From Gemmatimonadales bacterium (GTDB lineage: Bacteria > Gemmatimonadota > Gemmatimonadetes > Gemmatimonadales > GWC2-71-9): a stretch of 51,145 nucleotides of DNA. The position numbers were made by a program. The stretch spans positions 1-51,145 of the forward strand of contig JBFJHJ010000023.1 in assembly GCA_041613315.1 (NCBI GenBank). Reading direction: 5' to 3'. The number at the start of each line of letters is the position of its first letter. Within the stretch, counting starts at the first letter, position 1. Shown here piece by piece: positions 25,601 through 34,600 of the stretch.

Positions 25601-28600
25601 CACGTCGATCGCCCGGACACCGACGTCCAGCAGCGGCAGGTGGTCGTCGCTGATCATGTGACGTACGTCGTCGCGGAACGCGCGGCCGTACCCGAGCTCG
25701 TCGGCGACGCTCCACACCCGTCGCACCACCTCGGGCGCTCGCGTTACCGAATGCTGTTCCTGGTAGATCTCCAGATCCCGGTCGCCCACCATGTCCCACA
25801 CGACGCCGAAGAGCGGGAGGCGGGACCGATCGAGCCGGCTCGCGTAGTGGCGCGACCCCAGGAACACGTCGCGATCCGCCCCGAAATCGCCGTAGTCCTC
25901 GCCGTCCACGAACAGCAGATCGACGCCCACGCCGGGCGGACGGCGGTGCAGGGCATCCGCCACCCCGAGCAGCAGTGCCACGCCGGACGCGCCGTCGTTC
26001 GCACCCGGCACGGGGCGCCGCTGCTGCGCCACATTGCGGCTCTGATCGGCGACGGGACGCGTGTCCCAGTGCGCGACGTAGAGAATGCGTTCCGCCAGCG
26101 CCGGCTGGAATCGGCCGATGAAGTTGCGCAGCTGCAGGGTGTCGCCCGCGGCGGCCACATGCGTGAAGGCCTGCACCTCGACCGAGTCGGCCGTCTCGCG
26201 CAGCCGGCGAAGGATCCAGTCGCCGGCTGCCCGGTGACCGTCCGTGTTCGGGATACGAGGCCCGAAGTCGAGCTGCGTCCGGACCGATTCGAGCGCCGCC
26301 TGCCCGTCGAATTCGCGCTCGATCGGGCCGCCGGCGCCACATGCGAGGACGGCGAGGAGCACGGCGCCCACGAGGGTTCTCATCTCACAACTGTCCCGCG
26401 AAGAGGTTGATGTCGGCGAAGATGGTGAACACGATCTGCGACAGTTTTTGCGACGTGTGCCGCTGGTCGGTGAGCACATAGCTGAAGGTGAGCCCCCCGC
26501 GCACCGATTCCGAGAACCCCGTGTCGGTGCGGACGTCGAATTGCTGCCGTCGGCTGTCCGATACGGTGCGGCATTCGCCCGACCCGACCCGCACCAGGCA
26601 GACGGCGCGCTCCGACGAGCTGAATCCGAGGGTCGTCTGAAGCCGCCCCCGCAGCCGCACCAAACTGGCCGGCGGTCGGAACGCGAAGCTGGCGCTGGCT
26701 CCCCAATTCTCCTGCTCGCTCCGCGTCACGTTTCCGGCCGTCACCGCGTCGCTCGTCGCCCGCGAGTATTGCGCCGCGGTCGTGACACCCATCGCCCACG
26801 TGAGCGACACCGAGGGCGCGATCAAGACGGCGTCCGTTTCCGTCACGACCGCGGCCCCCGGAGCCGCCGTTCCCGCGGACCCCGGGGTCCGCAGTACGCT
26901 CGACGTGGACGACTCGCGGTACTGTGTCTGCGCCGACAACGCCGAGATCACCGAGCGCAGGGCGGACCGCGGCGTGTAGACCCAGGAGAAGGCGAGGGAT
27001 GGCCACTCCCGGCTCGTCTGGGCGAACTCGATCTGCGCGTCTCCCCGGCGCGCCCACCAGGTGTTGCGGAGATCCCGGTATTGCACCCGGAGTTGCGCCC
27101 CCAACGGCAGCCGTGTGCCGCCGGTCGCGAAGATCGTCGAGGACTCGCCCGCCGACGTGGCCGGCACGCCCGCCCGAGCCCGGAAATCGTCGAGGCCGCC
27201 CAGACCGAGCTGATACCCGAGGCCCGCGTCGAACGGCGCACGGTCGAACGTCGAGCGCCGCTCGCGGGCCCAGGAGACATCGGCCGGGAGGAAGCCGCGG
27301 ACGAGGCGGGCCACGAGGCTGGAATCTCCGACGATCCCTCGCACAAGCCGCGACAGATCCACGCCGGTCCCCACCTCCCGGCGCCGGAAGTTGCTCTGCG
27401 TCTCCGGCACGCGGAACCCCCCGCCCGCGTCCGGGCCCAGGCGTACGGCATCCCGCGCATTGGGATCGCGGTACAGCGCGAATCGGGTGCTCACCCCGTA
27501 CCGCGGGCGCAGCCACGCGCTCACCACCGGGCTGACCGTCACCGACGTCGCGAACGTGCGGAGCCGCTCGAATCCGACGTTGACGCCGACCAGGGCCCCC
27601 CGCTCGGACTCCAGCAGGCGTCCGATCGTCGTCGAGTCGCCGTAGTCCTGCAGGTCGCGCACGCTCGTATAGTCCGCGCGGACGGCGAGCGTCGCGAACG
27701 GGCGGAACTCGACGCCGACGTCATTCACCCAGGTATGGACGACGCTGGGCAGCGGAGGGAGCGCGCTGTCACTCGCGAGCCGGACCGGCACGCGGAACGT
27801 GAACCGATCGGTACGGTTGTTGGTGAGCGTGGAGCTCAGGCGGACACGGTAGGGGTTGAGCCGAAGGCGGGCATTCCGCAGCGCCTTGCCGAATTCGCTG
27901 TTGCGGATGAACCCGGGGAGCGCGTCCACGAGACCCACGAGAAAGGCGGGCGCCGCCCGGATCGTCGCGGCGCCCGGCGTGAGCCCGTAGTCCGCGCGGA
28001 CCAGCCGATTGGTCGTCGCGGCTTCGGTGAGCGAGGTGACGCCCTCGGCCGTCTCGCGCCGCACCCGCACCGCCAGCGGGTCCAGCAACGTCCGGGTGAG
28101 AAACGTCTCGCCCCGCGTCGCCCGACGCAGCGACACCTCGAACGTCGTGACCCGGCCCCGGGGACGACGCAGCCCCGGCAGCGCATCGGCCCGGACGTCG
28201 GTGCGCGCCAGGTAGAACGGATCGCTGCTCGTCCGGCCATGCTGGACGCTGAACGGGACGCTCAGGCCCCACGCCGCCGGCAAGAACTTGTCGAGTCGAA
28301 TGAGCGCGCCGATCCGCGAGGCACCCTCCTCCACGTAGCTCGGGCGCTCCCCGAGCTGCCGGAAACGGTCGCCGCGGTTCGTGAACGCGAACGTGAATTC
28401 GGCCACATCGGCGGCGGCGAGCCGCACATCGAGCGCGGCGGCGACATCGGGATCGTCCACCGCGTCGCTCAACCGAATGTCACCGACCCACAGTTCCGCT
28501 TCGGTGATGGCCACCGTCGTCCCGGTCCGCAGGACCCCCGCCGCCACCTCGGAAACGCGCGCGAGGTTCGGCGGCGTCACGCCGGGGTCCCGCACCTGCA

Positions 28601-31600: not shown

Positions 31601-34600
31601 GCGCGACGACGAAGAAGAACCGCCCGCGCTCGTAGTCGAGGTCGCGCGCCTCGAAATCGACGGGCTGCGTGGCCGTCTCACCCATCGAGAAGATGCGCGA
31701 GCGAAGCGCCGACCCCTTCTGCTGGACGACCACGGTGCGAAACTCCAGCGCCCCCACCTGCCCATGGGCCTGGACGCCGAACGAGTTCGCCGGGATCGCC
31801 GCGGTGATGAACCGCGACGGCGGGGCGTCGAAAGTGACGTTTCCCACGTCGATCCGCCGGAGCAGGTCATCCGAGCCGCCCTGGTACCACACATTCATGT
31901 TGTTGTTGGCGTCGAACTCACGCTCGCTGTCGAAGTCCACGCTCACGTGGAGCCGATCGCCCATCACGCCGCCGGTGCGCACGCGAAACTGTTGGTCGAA
32001 GGTCGGCGTGGGGAATCCGGCGCGGCAGCCGGATGCAGGATTGCTGATGTCCTGGGCCGTGCAGCGCTCGTTGCGCAGCCGGTCCACTCTCATCTCCACG
32101 TGTGCCCCCAGCTCGAGGCCAAGGTTGGCGAAATCGGCGAACGACTCGAGCGCCCCGGGCGCCTCCCGCTCGGCCAGCTCCGCGGGCCGCGGGATCACGA
32201 TCGCCGGCGCAGCGGTATCCGGCCGAGCCGGGACGAGCGCCACCGACTCGAGCAGCCGGCGGCGTGCGCGAGCGGCGCGCGATCGCCGCAGGGAGGCTTC
32301 GGTCGCCGCCGCCCACCTCGCGGCCACGATGGCCGGCGGCACCCGCGGCCCGAGGCGGCCACCGGCCATCAGGGCACCGAGCGCGGGGACGGGCAGCGTA
32401 TCGCGCTCGAGCGCGAGCCGCACCGCGGGCGCCGGCGCGCGTGGCACGTCCTGCGCACGGAGCGCCGCCGCCCCGGTGAGGAGCGCGAGCGCCGCGAGCG
32501 CGAGCGCCACTTTCCACACGAGAGTGGGGTAAGCCTTGTATCGGGTCGGGCGGCGCAATATAATGGCGCTCAAGTTGTTACAAGTTCACGCGTTACGAGT
32601 ACCCATGACGATTCTCAACCGCTATCTCCTGCGGCAGCATGCGGGTCCCTTCTTCTTCGCGTTCGGCGCGATGACGGGGTTCATGCTGCTGCAGCAGATC
32701 GCCCGCCGGCTGGAGGATCTGCTGGGGAAGGGCCTGCCGTGGACCATCATCGTGGAGTTCTTCGCCCTGACGATCCCCTTCCTCGTGGCGATGACACTCT
32801 CGATGTCGGTGCTGGTCGCCGTGCTGTACACGTTCAGCCGGCTGACGGGCGACAACGAGCTCACGGCGCTCCGGGCCGGCGGTCTGTCCGTCCTCCAGCT
32901 GGTGCGGCCGCTCCTCGTCGCCGCCGCCGTGGTGGCGCTGCTCGCATTCGTCTTCGGGGACCAGGTCCTGCCTCGCACGAACCACCGGCTGCGGGCCTTG
33001 ATGACGGACATCTACCGCACCAAGCCCACGTTCTCCCTCAAAGAGCACGTGATCAACGAGGTGCAGAAGCAGCGGCTGTTGCTCCGCGCCGCGCAGATCG
33101 ATCAAGCCACCTATCGGATGCGCGACATCACGGTCTACGATTTCACCGATCCGGCGCGCCGACGGGTGATCTACGCCGATCACGGCCGGATCGCCTTTGC
33201 ACCGAACCAGGAGGACTTGCAGCTCACGCTGAACGACGGGACCATTCATGAGTTTGACCGCGACGATCCGCGGATGTTCCAACTCACGGATTTCCGCCGT
33301 CAGCTCGTGTTGGTCAAGGGTGTGGGTAGCGAGTTCGCGCGCCGAGACAGCGACGACTACCGGGGCGACCGGGAGATGGGGATCTGCGACCTCGAGGAGG
33401 TCGTGCGAACGGCCCGACGGGAATCGTTGATCTCGGATCGCCGCCTGGAGACGATTCGGGCCAACGGCCTTCGCTCGCTCGTCGGGCTGCCGCCGCTCGA
33501 AACGGACACCCTGGACCTGACCCCGGACACGCCCGGCCTCTATTGCCGGACACTGGCGCGAGCCGGCGAAGTGATCCAGCGCGTTGCCCAGTTCCTGCGC
33601 CCCGGGCCGCTCGAGGCGCAACAAGGGGCGGTGCCGGACAGCCTGGCGCGCACGATTGCTGAGCGCGCCGCGCCGGCGACGCTGCCGATCACGGTCCGGC
33701 CCCAGACATCGCGCTACACGGGGGCGCAGCTCCGGATGTTCCGTGACCGCGCCCGCTCGGCGCGCATCCGGGCGTCCGTGTATCTCGTCGAGCTTCACAA
33801 GAAGTACGCGATCCCGGCGGCGTGCATCGTCTTCGTTCTCCTCGGCGTTCCCATCGCGGTGAGCTTCCCCAGGGGTGGCGTGGGGCTGACGGTCGTCGCC
33901 GGCTTCGTGATCTTCGGCTTCTTCTACATCGGGCTCATCGGGGGCGAGTCGCTGGCCAATCGGCTGGTCGTGACGCCTTTCTGGGCGATGTGGACACCGA
34001 ACGTCCTCCTAGGCGTCGCCGGCATCCTCGCGCTGTGGCGGATGAGCCGCCAGGGAACGTCGCCGCGGGCGCGCCGGCCCCGCGAGCCGGCCGGGATGGC
34101 GCCGCCCGCGCCATGATCACGAACACGCTGGACCGCTACATCCTCCGCGAGTGGGGGAAGATTTTCGCCGCCACGGTCATCGGCTTTCCGCTGCTGGTCA
34201 GCCTGTTCGAGCTCACGGACAGTCTCGACCGGTACCTGATGCGGGGACTCGGGCCGGCCAAGATCGCCTTGGGATACGCGTACGCCTTCCCCGACAAGAT
34301 CTTTCTCATCATCCCGGCGGCCGTGTTGTTTGCGACGGTGTTCTGTCTTGGCGCCATGAATCGCCACTCCGAGCTGACGGCGACCAAGGCGTCGGGGGTG
34401 AGCGTGTACCGCGTGCTCTGGCCGGTGCTCGCGGCGGCCACGGCGGCCGCGGCCGTGGACTTCGTGGTGGGCGAGCTGGCCCCTCCCGCCACGCGGCGGC
34501 AGCTCGAGGTGTTGGGCGAGGCCGAGGTCCGCTCGACGACCGCCCGGCACAACTTCGTGTATCGCGCCGAGGAAGGCTGGGCGTACGCCGTCCAACGGCT

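Follow-up and report, generated by a model that had tools for sequence, protein, structure and literature searches.

Type IX secretion systems (T9SSs) have been described in the literature with a proton-driven motor, GldLM/PorLM. In Porphyromonas, the response regulator PorX has been reported to contact PorL of this motor. For T9SS in Gemmatimonadota, our literature searches yielded only a passing remark that the system "may be present". We analysed a window of 51,145 nucleotides, together with the other contigs of its bin (82.9% complete, 52 contigs), from a marine Gemmatimonadales bacterium in which a preceding survey had proposed a SprA translocon stripped of its motor, and we compared the locus with 151 sampled Gemmatimonadota genomes and with SprA loci of other phyla.

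The sprA gene and its neighbours

The window carries an uninterrupted sprA frame (2062 aa counted from TTG in the longest frame; Table 1) that scores 484.5 bits against TIGR04189 (SprA; cut-off 200), and this match identifies it as a genuine, intact SprA/Sov gene, as the survey had claimed. The likely start lies inside the longer frame, near 32519, and gives a protein of 2044 aa with a normal signal peptide (...LLTGAAALRA/QD). The model is covered to about 61%, in three stretches (129-256, 376-951 and 1078-1795 of 2319), rather than to the quarter stated before. In a sequence comparison the Flavobacterium johnsoniae SprA chain 6H3I matches the product at E 2.1e-32 (best stretch 578-769), and full-length homologues with 54-69% identity occur in many genomes, and NCBI calls some of them 'cell surface protein SprA'. 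The GC3 of the frame (0.88) is of the coding type. The gene is in itself ordinary, and its annotation as SprA already exists. In a quick tree, its product groups with those of KSB1, Zixibacteria, Marinimicrobia, Latescibacterota and part of Ignavibacteria, outside the clade of Bacteroidia and Rhodothermia.

The gene directly downstream encodes a type II (M28-fold) glutaminyl cyclase (Pfam Peptidase_M28, 97.9 bits), for which a start at Met33 (about 26383) would yield a lipoprotein-like signal (...LLAVLAC/G); its closest solved relatives are the bacterial glutamine cyclotransferases 6QRO (E 3e-54) and 6QQL (E 2e-52). Among 80 SprA loci from other phyla, 19 (of KSB1, Marinimicrobia, Ignavibacteria and Zixibacteria) have such a cyclase gene just downstream of sprA. 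By a crude rule, 110 of 251 candidate signal peptides have a Q after their predicted cleavage site (44% vs. 9.3% expected). Further downstream lie a comEA-like gene and the type IV pilus motor genes, which are context and are excluded from the secretion system; the relative genome G122 has pilB, pilT and pilC in the same order at 75-79% identity, and its 225-aa frame at the comEA-like place is unmatched in the window.

On the other side, lptF and lptG (LptF_LptG, 283.9 and 240.5 bits) diverge from sprA, as they also do in G122 and in a second relative, G045. Beyond them is a large outer-membrane barrel whose place is taken in relatives by the row 'large barrel, ~1440-aa CTD cargo, PorV', and which is only 23-25% identical to the large barrel of G122 and G045. 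The cargo and PorV genes of that row, a pair lying ~17 kb from sprA in family relatives, are absent beside the barrel here, and tblastn found no ortholog of the cargo in the bin.

Table 1. Features of the window (coordinates without prefix) and of other contigs of the same bin (prefixed C4, C7, C10 and C31)
Feature	Position	Strand	Basis and remarks
sprA, SprA/Sov-family outer-membrane translocon	26385..32573	-	open frame and TIGR04189
Type II (M28-fold) glutaminyl cyclase	25460..26479	-	longest frame 339 aa; directly downstream of sprA
ComEA-like helix-hairpin-helix protein	24762..25382	-	Pfam HHH_3 124 bits; context, conserved neighbour
pilB	22977-24686	-	type IV pilus motor gene; Pfam T2SSE, MshEN, T2SSF for pilBTC
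pilT	21806-22969	-	type IV pilus motor gene
pilC	20594-21787	-	type IV pilus motor gene
lptF	32536-34116	+	Pfam LptF_LptG; block 32536..35195; divergent from sprA, context
lptG	33822-35195	+	Pfam LptF_LptG; longest frame overlaps lptF; divergent from sprA, context
CarboxypepD_reg + beta-barrel outer-membrane protein, 1147 aa	35280..38723	-	OMP_b-brl_4 234.6 bits, CarboxypepD_reg 63 bits
PorV/PorQ-family protein, 326 aa	C31:35289-36269	-	NF033709 116.7 bits (cut 90)
PorX	C10:4648-6252	-	NF052313 531.2 bits (cut 300), model 2-513 of 513
CTD-only protein (signal peptide + CTD), 141 aa	C4:48515-48940	-	TIGR04183 26.2 bits (cut 23)
S8 subtilase with diverged CTD	C7:29270-31540		lineage CTD profile alone, E 2.5e-6

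Partner proteins and candidate cargo

The PorV/PorQ-family protein and the PorX that the survey had listed are both over their cut-offs (Table 1). The first falls far under the equivalog cut-offs of PorV (60.8 vs. 250) and PorQ (66.4 vs. 220). Its AF2 model (pLDDT 81.4) has F. johnsoniae PorV as best Foldseek matches (8GL6_F, E 1.5e-11, TMq 0.73; 6H3I_F, E 5.4e-10, TMq 0.71), with FadL/TodX ranking lower. Family profile and model together identify it as a putative PorV-type cargo shuttle, and its gene sits in a conserved block (Era, Trm112-like, PorV-like, 278-aa unknown). PorX combines a receiver with a PglZ domain; its gene neighbours one for an MsbA-like exporter here and two GT9 heptosyltransferase genes in two genomes of deep families.

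The survey's finding further held that the genome has no type IX C-terminal sorting domain (CTD) and proposed an unrecognised sorting signal. Both points have to be given up: ordinary type A CTDs occur in this genome and, by TIGR04183, in 46 of the 151 Gemmatimonadota genomes. The CTD-only protein, scanned as a protein, aligns to TIGR04183 over positions 2-71 of 72, and reaches 22.7 bits with Pfam PF18962, under the cut of 27. A lineage profile built from 24 Gemmatimonadota CTDs and run on 27,748 six-frame ORFs found it at E 7.8e-17, and recovered the S8 subtilase besides; these two proteins make up the recognisable cargo set of the genome, which is tiny. The CTD-only family comprises 2326 proteins at E≤1e-5, the best 120 of which have 138-143 aa and 65-92% identity. 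Against the PDB, the structure model of the CTD-only protein has no match at E≤0.001, T9SS CTD chains standing at ranks 4-6 (E 0.021). A complex of the protein with the PorV-like barrel is predicted (ipSAE 0.89 vs. 0.01 for the best of three controls; the ipSAE mark is one that 116 of 157 solved complexes attain, against 2 of 215 mismatched pairs), with at least 96% of contacts common to the prediction runs and a partner pLDDT of at least 87. As a similar complex has been solved (PorV with the RemA CTD, 8GL6), this prediction is a likeness and not proof of binding.

Motor and ring components in Gemmatimonadota and other phyla

The claim of missing GldK, GldL, GldM and GldN held up in this genome and in the sampled phylum genomes, and the positive control that it had lacked can now be supplied, the same motor and ring models being positive in all Bacteroidia controls (2/2, 2/2, 4/4). 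In the Gemmatimonadales genome the best scores were 10 bits for GldK and 17.6 bits for GldL (cut 68.3), profile searches gave no GldM or GldN, and the Pfam models GldL_N and GldN gave nothing at E≤0.1. Nine Bacteroidota PorP/GldK/L/M/N proteins, searched by phmmer against the 27,748 ORFs, returned one match, at E 0.086; PorP, for which this is a weak test, had none. GldL and GldM were over cut-off in 0 of 151 Gemmatimonadota genomes, as was GldK, with generic FGE-domain matches only, and GldL_N and GldN in 0 of 18, of which 14 are CTD-rich. Judged by sequence profiles, then, both the motor (PorL/GldL, PorM/GldM) and the ring (PorK/GldK, PorN/GldN) are absent.

By the same kind of search, this pattern is not peculiar to Gemmatimonadota. 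SprA-bearing KSB1, Ignavibacteria, Zixibacteria, Marinimicrobia and Latescibacterota genomes likewise lack GldL, and the five of them that were checked for cargo tails are CTD-rich; KSB1 and Melioribacteraceae genomes with 87 to at least 149 CTD proteins have no GldL_N match.

Such numbers would weigh heavily on a passive pore, and they lend some weight to a system that is powered after all, either by a diverged GldL/GldM invisible to our searches or by a recruited proton-driven stator of the ExbBD/TolQR/MotAB type. The GldL family fades quickly with distance: GldL_N scores 27.2 bits in the single positive Rhodothermia genome and misses two other Rhodothermales and a further genome (G153), and our profiles could therefore overlook a GldL that is more distant still. 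PorX, moreover, is kept at equivalog level in 138 of 151 Gemmatimonadota genomes. Against this, the searches above produced no candidate, sprA, porX, the porV-like gene and the CTD genes of this genome have no stator-like gene next to them, and in two deep-family genomes the stretch from porX to sprA holds none either. We consider a hidden or borrowed motor rather unlikely.

Distribution of SprA, CTDs and PorU

As the survey had maintained, SprA is widespread in Gemmatimonadota, being over cut-off in 120 of 151 genomes and absent from 30. All 46 genomes with a CTD are SprA-positive, and a CTD occurs in 0 of 30 SprA-negative ones; PorX is present in 120 of 121 SprA-positive genomes, and 11 of 12 PorX-negative genomes also lack SprA (raw counts throughout, kinship ignored). 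The picture of a stripped system without PorU or CTD cargo is not supported. PorU is indeed missing from this genome and from all 132 sampled genomes of families f1-f9, and the window's own family has 0-2 generic CTD matches per genome; CTDs do exist, however, and PorU is over cut-off in 18 of 151 genomes, confined to three deep families (f10-f12), in which 19 of 19 genomes have a PorU match and each has 13 to at least 35 CTD matches. In the five deep-family genomes compared, porV adjoins the PorU gene.

The lack of PorU in families f1-f9 and the scarcity of CTDs in the window's own family could also mean that SprA of Gemmatimonadales has taken on a different role in the envelope, with the few CTD proteins as leftovers; its constant neighbours would point to DNA uptake or a pilus (comEA, pilBTC) or to outer-membrane/LPS biogenesis (lptFG). 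The order pilC-pilT-pilB-comEA-cyclase-sprA, with lptF-lptG divergent, is common to the window and G122; flanks of this kind also occur in other phyla, with lptFG divergent and upstream of sprA at 12 of 80 loci (KSB1, Latescibacterota and Gemmatimonadota among them) and a comEA-like gene downstream at 7 of 80. Yet pilBTC are near sprA in 0 of the 80 other loci (E≤1e-8), the CTD is restricted to SprA-positive genomes, and the CTD-only protein is strongly conserved, with a predicted docking to the PorV-like barrel. We regard a change of task as improbable.

Discussion

We favour, as the probable reading, a real SprA/Sov translocon whose task is a reduced, CTD-dependent export over the outer membrane, with no canonical GldK/L/M/N (PorK/L/M/N) motor and ring involved; we infer that SprA, the PorV-like protein, PorX and the CTD proteins work as one system and that no dedicated proton-driven motor takes part in transport. 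Sec would carry the cargo over the inner membrane, the lipoprotein glutaminyl cyclase, whose gene directly follows sprA, would cap the newly exposed N-terminal glutamine, the PorV-family barrel would bind the type A CTD and hand the cargo to SprA, and the cargo would leave through the SprA pore, with PorX as the likely regulator. As no PorU sortase is found, cleavage and lipid anchoring of the cargo, as in Porphyromonas, are improbable. The bin is 82.9% complete and lacks the relatives' cargo-PorV pair, which may mean that the system is in decay here or in part unassembled. That sprA itself is a decaying, non-functional relic of an ancestral full T9SS seems very improbable to us: the pair is absent here and SprA has been lost entirely in 30 of 151 sampled genomes, but the 2062-codon frame is intact with a coding-type GC3, full-length homologues persist in many genomes and the partner genes are conserved.

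There is also a wider view, which we put forward tentatively and hold to be possible at best: SprA, PorV and CTDs could be an old self-sufficient T9SS core common to the whole FCB group (Gemmatimonadota, KSB1, Zixibacteria, Marinimicrobia, Latescibacterota and Ignavibacteria among the genomes examined), often tied genetically to glutaminyl cyclase in one branch. The GldKLMN motor and ring would then have been acquired later, in Bacteroidia and some Rhodothermia and perhaps in connection with gliding, and export through the 36-strand pore would need no dedicated proton-driven motor. If whole phyla export dozens to more than 100 CTD-tagged proteins through SprA without this motor, either the transport step runs without this energy supply or there is an unknown energiser; both outcomes bear on the working of the largest known single-chain outer-membrane pore.

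Compared with SprA of F. johnsoniae (6H3I, 6H3J, 8GL6, 8GL8) and Sov of Porphyromonas gingivalis, the window protein belongs to the same curated equivalog family and is alike in its giant size, its signal peptide and the PorV-fold barrel and type A CTD proteins that accompany it. It is ~340 residues shorter than the solved F. johnsoniae chain (2403 residues), a giant single-chain barrel of 36 strands to which it is likened by sequence alone, and leaves the last quarter of the SprA model (1796-2319) unmatched; unlike the SprA/Sov systems, its genome is without GldK/L/M/N and PorU. The PorV-like protein, with F. johnsoniae PorV (chain F of 6H3I and 8GL6) as best structural match and predicted to bind a CTD, has 326 aa against ~390-400 aa and is a second paralogue, the relatives' main PorV, which adjoins the large CTD cargo, being absent from the bin. 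PorX is a full-length equivalog match to the P. gingivalis T9SS response regulator with its PglZ domain, and differs in having no detectable PorL partner and in its place beside LPS genes. The cyclase resembles the type II enzymes of Bacteroidota (P. gingivalis PG2157; 6QQL, 6QRO), here with a lipoprotein-like signal, and exported proteins of this genome often start with Q, a likeness to the 'Q-rule'. According to PMC5837995, that rule is valid for Bacteroidetes and not for the entire FCB group. In this Gemmatimonadales genome the cyclase gene forms part of the sprA locus, as it does in the 19 loci of other phyla.

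An intact sprA gene and its conserved neighbours

The long open frame of the window encodes SprA, the outer-membrane pore of type 9 secretion (T9SS), and this is a genuine, undamaged gene that public records already annotate. The start of 32519 in the survey's finding lies inside the 2062-codon frame listed in the table and yields a typical signal peptide (...ALRA↓QD), and the GC3 of 0.88 is like that of other genes of the same contig (70% G+C). The protein scores 484.5 bits against the NCBIfam translocon model Sov/SprA (TIGR04189, cut-off 200); a worry that only a quarter of this model was covered was not borne out, as a six-frame search matches three stretches (model positions 129-256, 376-951 and 1078-1795 of 2319), or ~61% of it. 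Pfam SprA_N gives 26.0 bits, slightly below its cut-off of 27, and the solved SprA of Flavobacterium johnsoniae (6H3I) is matched at E 2.1e-32. There are 668 relatives at E≤1e-5; the best 119 public ones of these are 54-69% identical and mostly full-length, and the named ones among them are 'cell surface protein SprA' of Gemmatimonadota. For ten distant SprA representatives, the cluster members yielded a single taxon name, KSB1.

Genes of the window and of other contigs of the source genome (C4, C7, C10, C31) discussed here
Gene or product	Position	Strand	Remarks
sprA	26385-32573	-	2062-codon open frame from TTG
M28-fold protein, type II glutaminyl cyclase	25460-26479	-	immediately downstream of sprA
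PilS-like histidine kinase and sigma-54 PilR-like regulator	13058-16200	-	sprA strand
Cyclophilin-type prolyl isomerase	17557-18039	-	sprA strand
PorV/PorQ-family protein	C31:35289-36269	-	NF033709 116.7 bits, cut-off 90
278-aa exported protein	C31:34449-35285 (= L095:4450-5286)	-	no Pfam family; 4 bases 3' of the PorV-like gene
PorX, full-length	C10:4648-6252	-	531.2 bits, cut-off 300
CTD-only protein, 141 aa	C4:48515-48940 (= L124:4516-4941)	-	signal peptide (...MDA↓QD) and CTD, nothing else
S8 subtilase	C7:29270-31540	-	CTD split by an insertion; lineage profile E 2.5e-6, TIGR04183 15.5 bits

Downstream of sprA, on the same strand, come the M28-fold protein, a ComEA-like HhH protein and then pilB, pilT and pilC; upstream and divergent lie lptF and lptG, followed by a 1147-aa CarboxypepD_reg barrel, and this entire gene order is conserved in a relative from the same family (G122). 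The closest solved relatives of the M28-fold protein are bacterial glutamine cyclotransferases (6QRO, E 3e-54; 6QQL, E 2e-52), and read from Met33 it carries a lipoprotein-like signal. We compared this arrangement with 80 SprA loci found with a five-sequence SprA alignment in KSB1, Calditrichota, Marinimicrobia, Ignavibacteria, Zixibacteria, Latescibacterota, Rhodothermales, Bacteroidia and Gemmatimonadota. The cyclase gene stands directly 3' of sprA in 19 of them (L013-L078), from KSB1, Marinimicrobia, Ignavibacteria, Zixibacteria and unlabelled MAGs, and follows sprA in none of the Bacteroidia loci. The two genes are an old cross-phylum pair that ties the pore to N-terminal pyroglutamate formation. 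Divergent lptFG genes lie upstream of sprA in 12/80 loci. The pilBTC genes were close to sprA in 0/80 loci, and with this result from other lineages we ruled out SprA, comEA and pilBTC as one machine.

Further downstream, 8-19 kb from sprA, the same strand carries a PilS/PilR-like pair and a prolyl isomerase; the solved extended SprA translocon, by the title of 8GL8, includes a prolyl isomerase too.

A crude signal-peptide rule applied to the predicted proteins of the source genome found Gln to be the first polar residue past the small-x-small site in 110/251 candidates (44% vs. 9.3% expected), and A↓Q was read in SprA, the PorV-like barrel, the CTD-only protein and the S8 subtilase. According to Bochtler et al. 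(2018; PMC5837995), this Q-rule is true of Bacteroidetes and not of the entire FCB group.

Search for the Gld motor in the source genome and across the phylum

The survey's finding had put SprA, PorV and PorX together in a genome without motor proteins, and this part of it stands. The source bin (82.9% complete) gave best scores of 10 bits for GldK and 17.6 bits for GldL (cut-off 68.3), no match for GldM or GldN, and nothing at E≤0.1 for Pfam GldL_N and GldN; nine PorP/GldK/L/M/N proteins out of two Bacteroidota gldKLMN operons, run with phmmer against its 27,748 six-frame ORFs, returned one match at E 0.086. We then took 151 genomes of Gemmatimonadota (145 are of high quality; two, G057 and G097, are flagged as unpublished, and no conclusion depends on these two alone), 120 of which have SprA over its cut-off. 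GldM was found in 0/151; GldL reached its cut-off in 0/151, with three matches of ~20 bits; and GldK did so in 0/151, matches in 82 genomes being confined to the model's generic FGE-sulfatase half. The positive control that the earlier search had lacked came from Bacteroidota genomes reached through SprA loci of named public genomes: GldM and GldL were over their cut-offs in 2/2 Bacteroidia, and in identical searches Pfam GldL_N and GldN were positive in 2/2 Bacteroidia vs. 0/18 Gemmatimonadota. At the level of profiles such as these, the absence is therefore not an artefact of how the search was done.

The FGE-sulfatase half of the GldK model drew 11-18 matches per genome in one deep family (f10, G002-G032), with up to 78 first-look candidates; these FGE-fold proteins form a large expansion of unassigned role, and 0 reach the GldK cut-off.

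In the source genome no motor-like genes stood next to sprA, porX, the PorV-like gene or either CTD gene, and two deep-family genomes had none in the 12-16 kb that separate porX from sprA; the genes seen instead at the inspected T9SS loci were housekeeping, LPS, Mla and Lon genes only.

Cargo, carrier and regulator

The claim that no protein carries a type A C-terminal sorting domain (CTD, TIGR04183) had to be given up: this model is over its cut-off in 46/151 genomes of the phylum, and the source genome itself has two CTD proteins. All 19 genomes of the deep families f10, f11 and f12 have matches, from 13 to at least 35 each; the window's own family has one or two in 24/71 genomes, and the family of Gemmatimonas has none over the cut-off in 31. 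The sortase PorU is over its cut-off in 18/151 genomes, all from f10-f12, where 19/19 have a match, and porV adjoins porU in the five genomes of these families that we compared. A ~1310-1480-aa CTD protein followed by a ~395-aa PorV recurs in the window's family, past lptFG and ~17 kb from sprA. This pair is absent from the window, where the 1147-aa barrel comes directly after lptG, and tblastn found no ortholog of this CTD cargo in the source bin.

The smaller of the two CTD proteins of the source genome, the CTD-only protein, scores 26.2 bits on TIGR04183 (cut-off 23; model 2-71 of 72), 22.7 bits on Pfam PF18962 (cut-off 27) and E 7.8e-17 on a lineage profile that we built from 24 Gemmatimonadota CTDs. 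It is annotated 'hypothetical protein' and has 2326 relatives at E≤1e-5 (77-247 aa), the best 120 of which are 138-143 aa long and 65-92% identical, and a Gln follows the signal peptide in all of the 23 members aligned. Its structural model (pLDDT 77.3) matched no PDB chain at E≤0.001 in Foldseek, and T9SS CTD chains (PorZ, RemA, RemZ) came no higher than ranks 4-6 (E 0.021).

The PorV-like protein scores well under the equivalog cut-offs of both PorV and PorQ. An AlphaFold model of it (pLDDT 81.4, from a 25-row alignment) is nearest to F. johnsoniae PorV (8GL6_F, E 1.5e-11, TMq 0.73; 6H3I_F, E 5.4e-10, TMq 0.71), and the next matches are FadL and TodX. The block around this gene is conserved (Era, Trm112-like, PorV-like, 278-aa exported protein, GGDEF-like), and the pair that it forms with the 278-aa gene recurs in G149 and G109 (57-59% identity); in the ESM Atlas, the 278-aa protein falls in Gemmatimonadota hypothetical clusters only, and 25% of one cluster carries a DUF5683 lead. 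PorV-family genes pass their cut-off in 115/151 genomes, and those of the deep families have 3-13 copies. A predicted complex of the PorV-like barrel with the CTD-only protein scored an ipSAE of 0.89, and the best of three controls had 0.01 (the mark for this score is reached by 116/157 solved complexes and 2/215 mismatched pairs), with at least 96% of contacts common to the runs and a partner pLDDT of at least 87. As a PorV-CTD complex has already been solved (8GL6), the prediction shows likeness to that complex and not that the pair binds. The CTD-only protein is conserved beyond what a sorting tag alone would need, and on these models it may be a permanent partner of PorV or SprA.

In raw counts that ignore kinship, 46/46 CTD-positive genomes have SprA and 0/30 SprA-negative genomes have a CTD match; likewise, PorX is present in 120/121 SprA-positive genomes, and 11/12 genomes without PorX are also without SprA. 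The losses behind these counts are concentrated in a few genera. This bears on a shift of SprA in function to DNA uptake or LPS export, a reading suggested only by its neighbourhood and weakened by the co-occurrence of CTD and SprA. SprA most likely serves CTD-dependent export.

The porX gene adjoins LPS genes: an MsbA-like lipid exporter in the source genome (the two together at C10:2839-6252) and, in two deep-family genomes (G014, G022; loci L142, L143), two GT9 heptosyltransferases that flank it.

SprA without GldL beyond Gemmatimonadota

We searched 24 of the genomes with SprA loci for GldL_N and found it in 4/4 Bacteroidia, 1/3 Rhodothermia (27.2 bits, G167) and 0/17 others (2 KSB1, 1 Calditrichota, 2 Marinimicrobia, 2 Ignavibacteria, 1 Latescibacterota, 2 Zixibacteria, 2 Gemmatimonadota and 5 oddly labelled or unlabelled MAGs), the MAGs being of no given completeness and two of them smaller than 1.5 Mb. 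None of GldK, L, M and N was found in a complete Rhodothermales chromosome, one Ignavibacteria and one KSB1 genome. Genomes without GldL can be rich in CTDs (E≤1e-8): 87 in KSB1, at least 149 in Melioribacteraceae, 45 in Marinimicrobia, 23 in Zixibacteria and 11 in Latescibacterota. Three Rhodothermales with SprA were GldL_N-negative (G153, G168 and G169; L077, L074 and L081), one of them a complete chromosome.

A rough, unrooted SprA tree (FFT-NS alignments and FastTree) was made in two runs, the first with the window and 56 of the 80 loci, leaving out 20 unlabelled loci and 4 with a frame below 1700 aa, and the second with 11 rows dropped and 15 database proteins added. In the first run, the window SprA stood on a long branch next to a 'Bacteroidales'-labelled MAG (L073). 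The tree has a Bacteroidia clade (support 1.0) and a Bacteroidia plus Rhodothermia clade (0.998), and every GldL-positive genome in it falls within the latter. The window SprA joins its Gemmatimonadales relatives (1.0) among KSB1, Zixibacteria, Marinimicrobia, Latescibacterota and part of Ignavibacteria, and all the cyclase-linked loci present in the tree belong to this mixed group.

The Ignavibacteria SprA proteins (L028-L092) form two separate groups in this quick tree, one of ~1950-1990 aa beside Zixibacteria, with 4/6 loci cyclase-linked, and one mostly of ~2290-2350 aa (one of 2112 aa) nearer Rhodothermia and Bacteroidia.

Discussion

As an alternative to needing no motor, SprA transport may use an unseen one: the GldL score is already down to 27 bits in Rhodothermia, and PorX is strongly conserved. 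No stator-like gene lies next to any T9SS gene inspected, which speaks against this. We consider it most likely that SprA marks an export route that runs without the canonical GldKLMN proteins and, in this lineage, also lacks PorU and serves very few cargoes.

In searches of the open full-text literature we found no statement that the motor is missing outside Bacteroidota. In the parts consulted, Abby et al. (2016; PMC4793230) detect T9SS in Bacteroidetes only, Gemmatimonadetes not being displayed; Bochtler et al. (2018; PMC5837995) report hints from BLAST that Chlorobi, Fibrobacteres and Ignavibacteriae may have T9SS; papers on Melioribacter (PMC3534657) and Fibrobacter (PMC6851124) note CTDs with no mention there of the motor; and a review (PMC9127263) counts the motor among the components of T9SS. 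Cargo recognition in the route described here would most likely go, as in known T9SS, through a PorV-type carrier.
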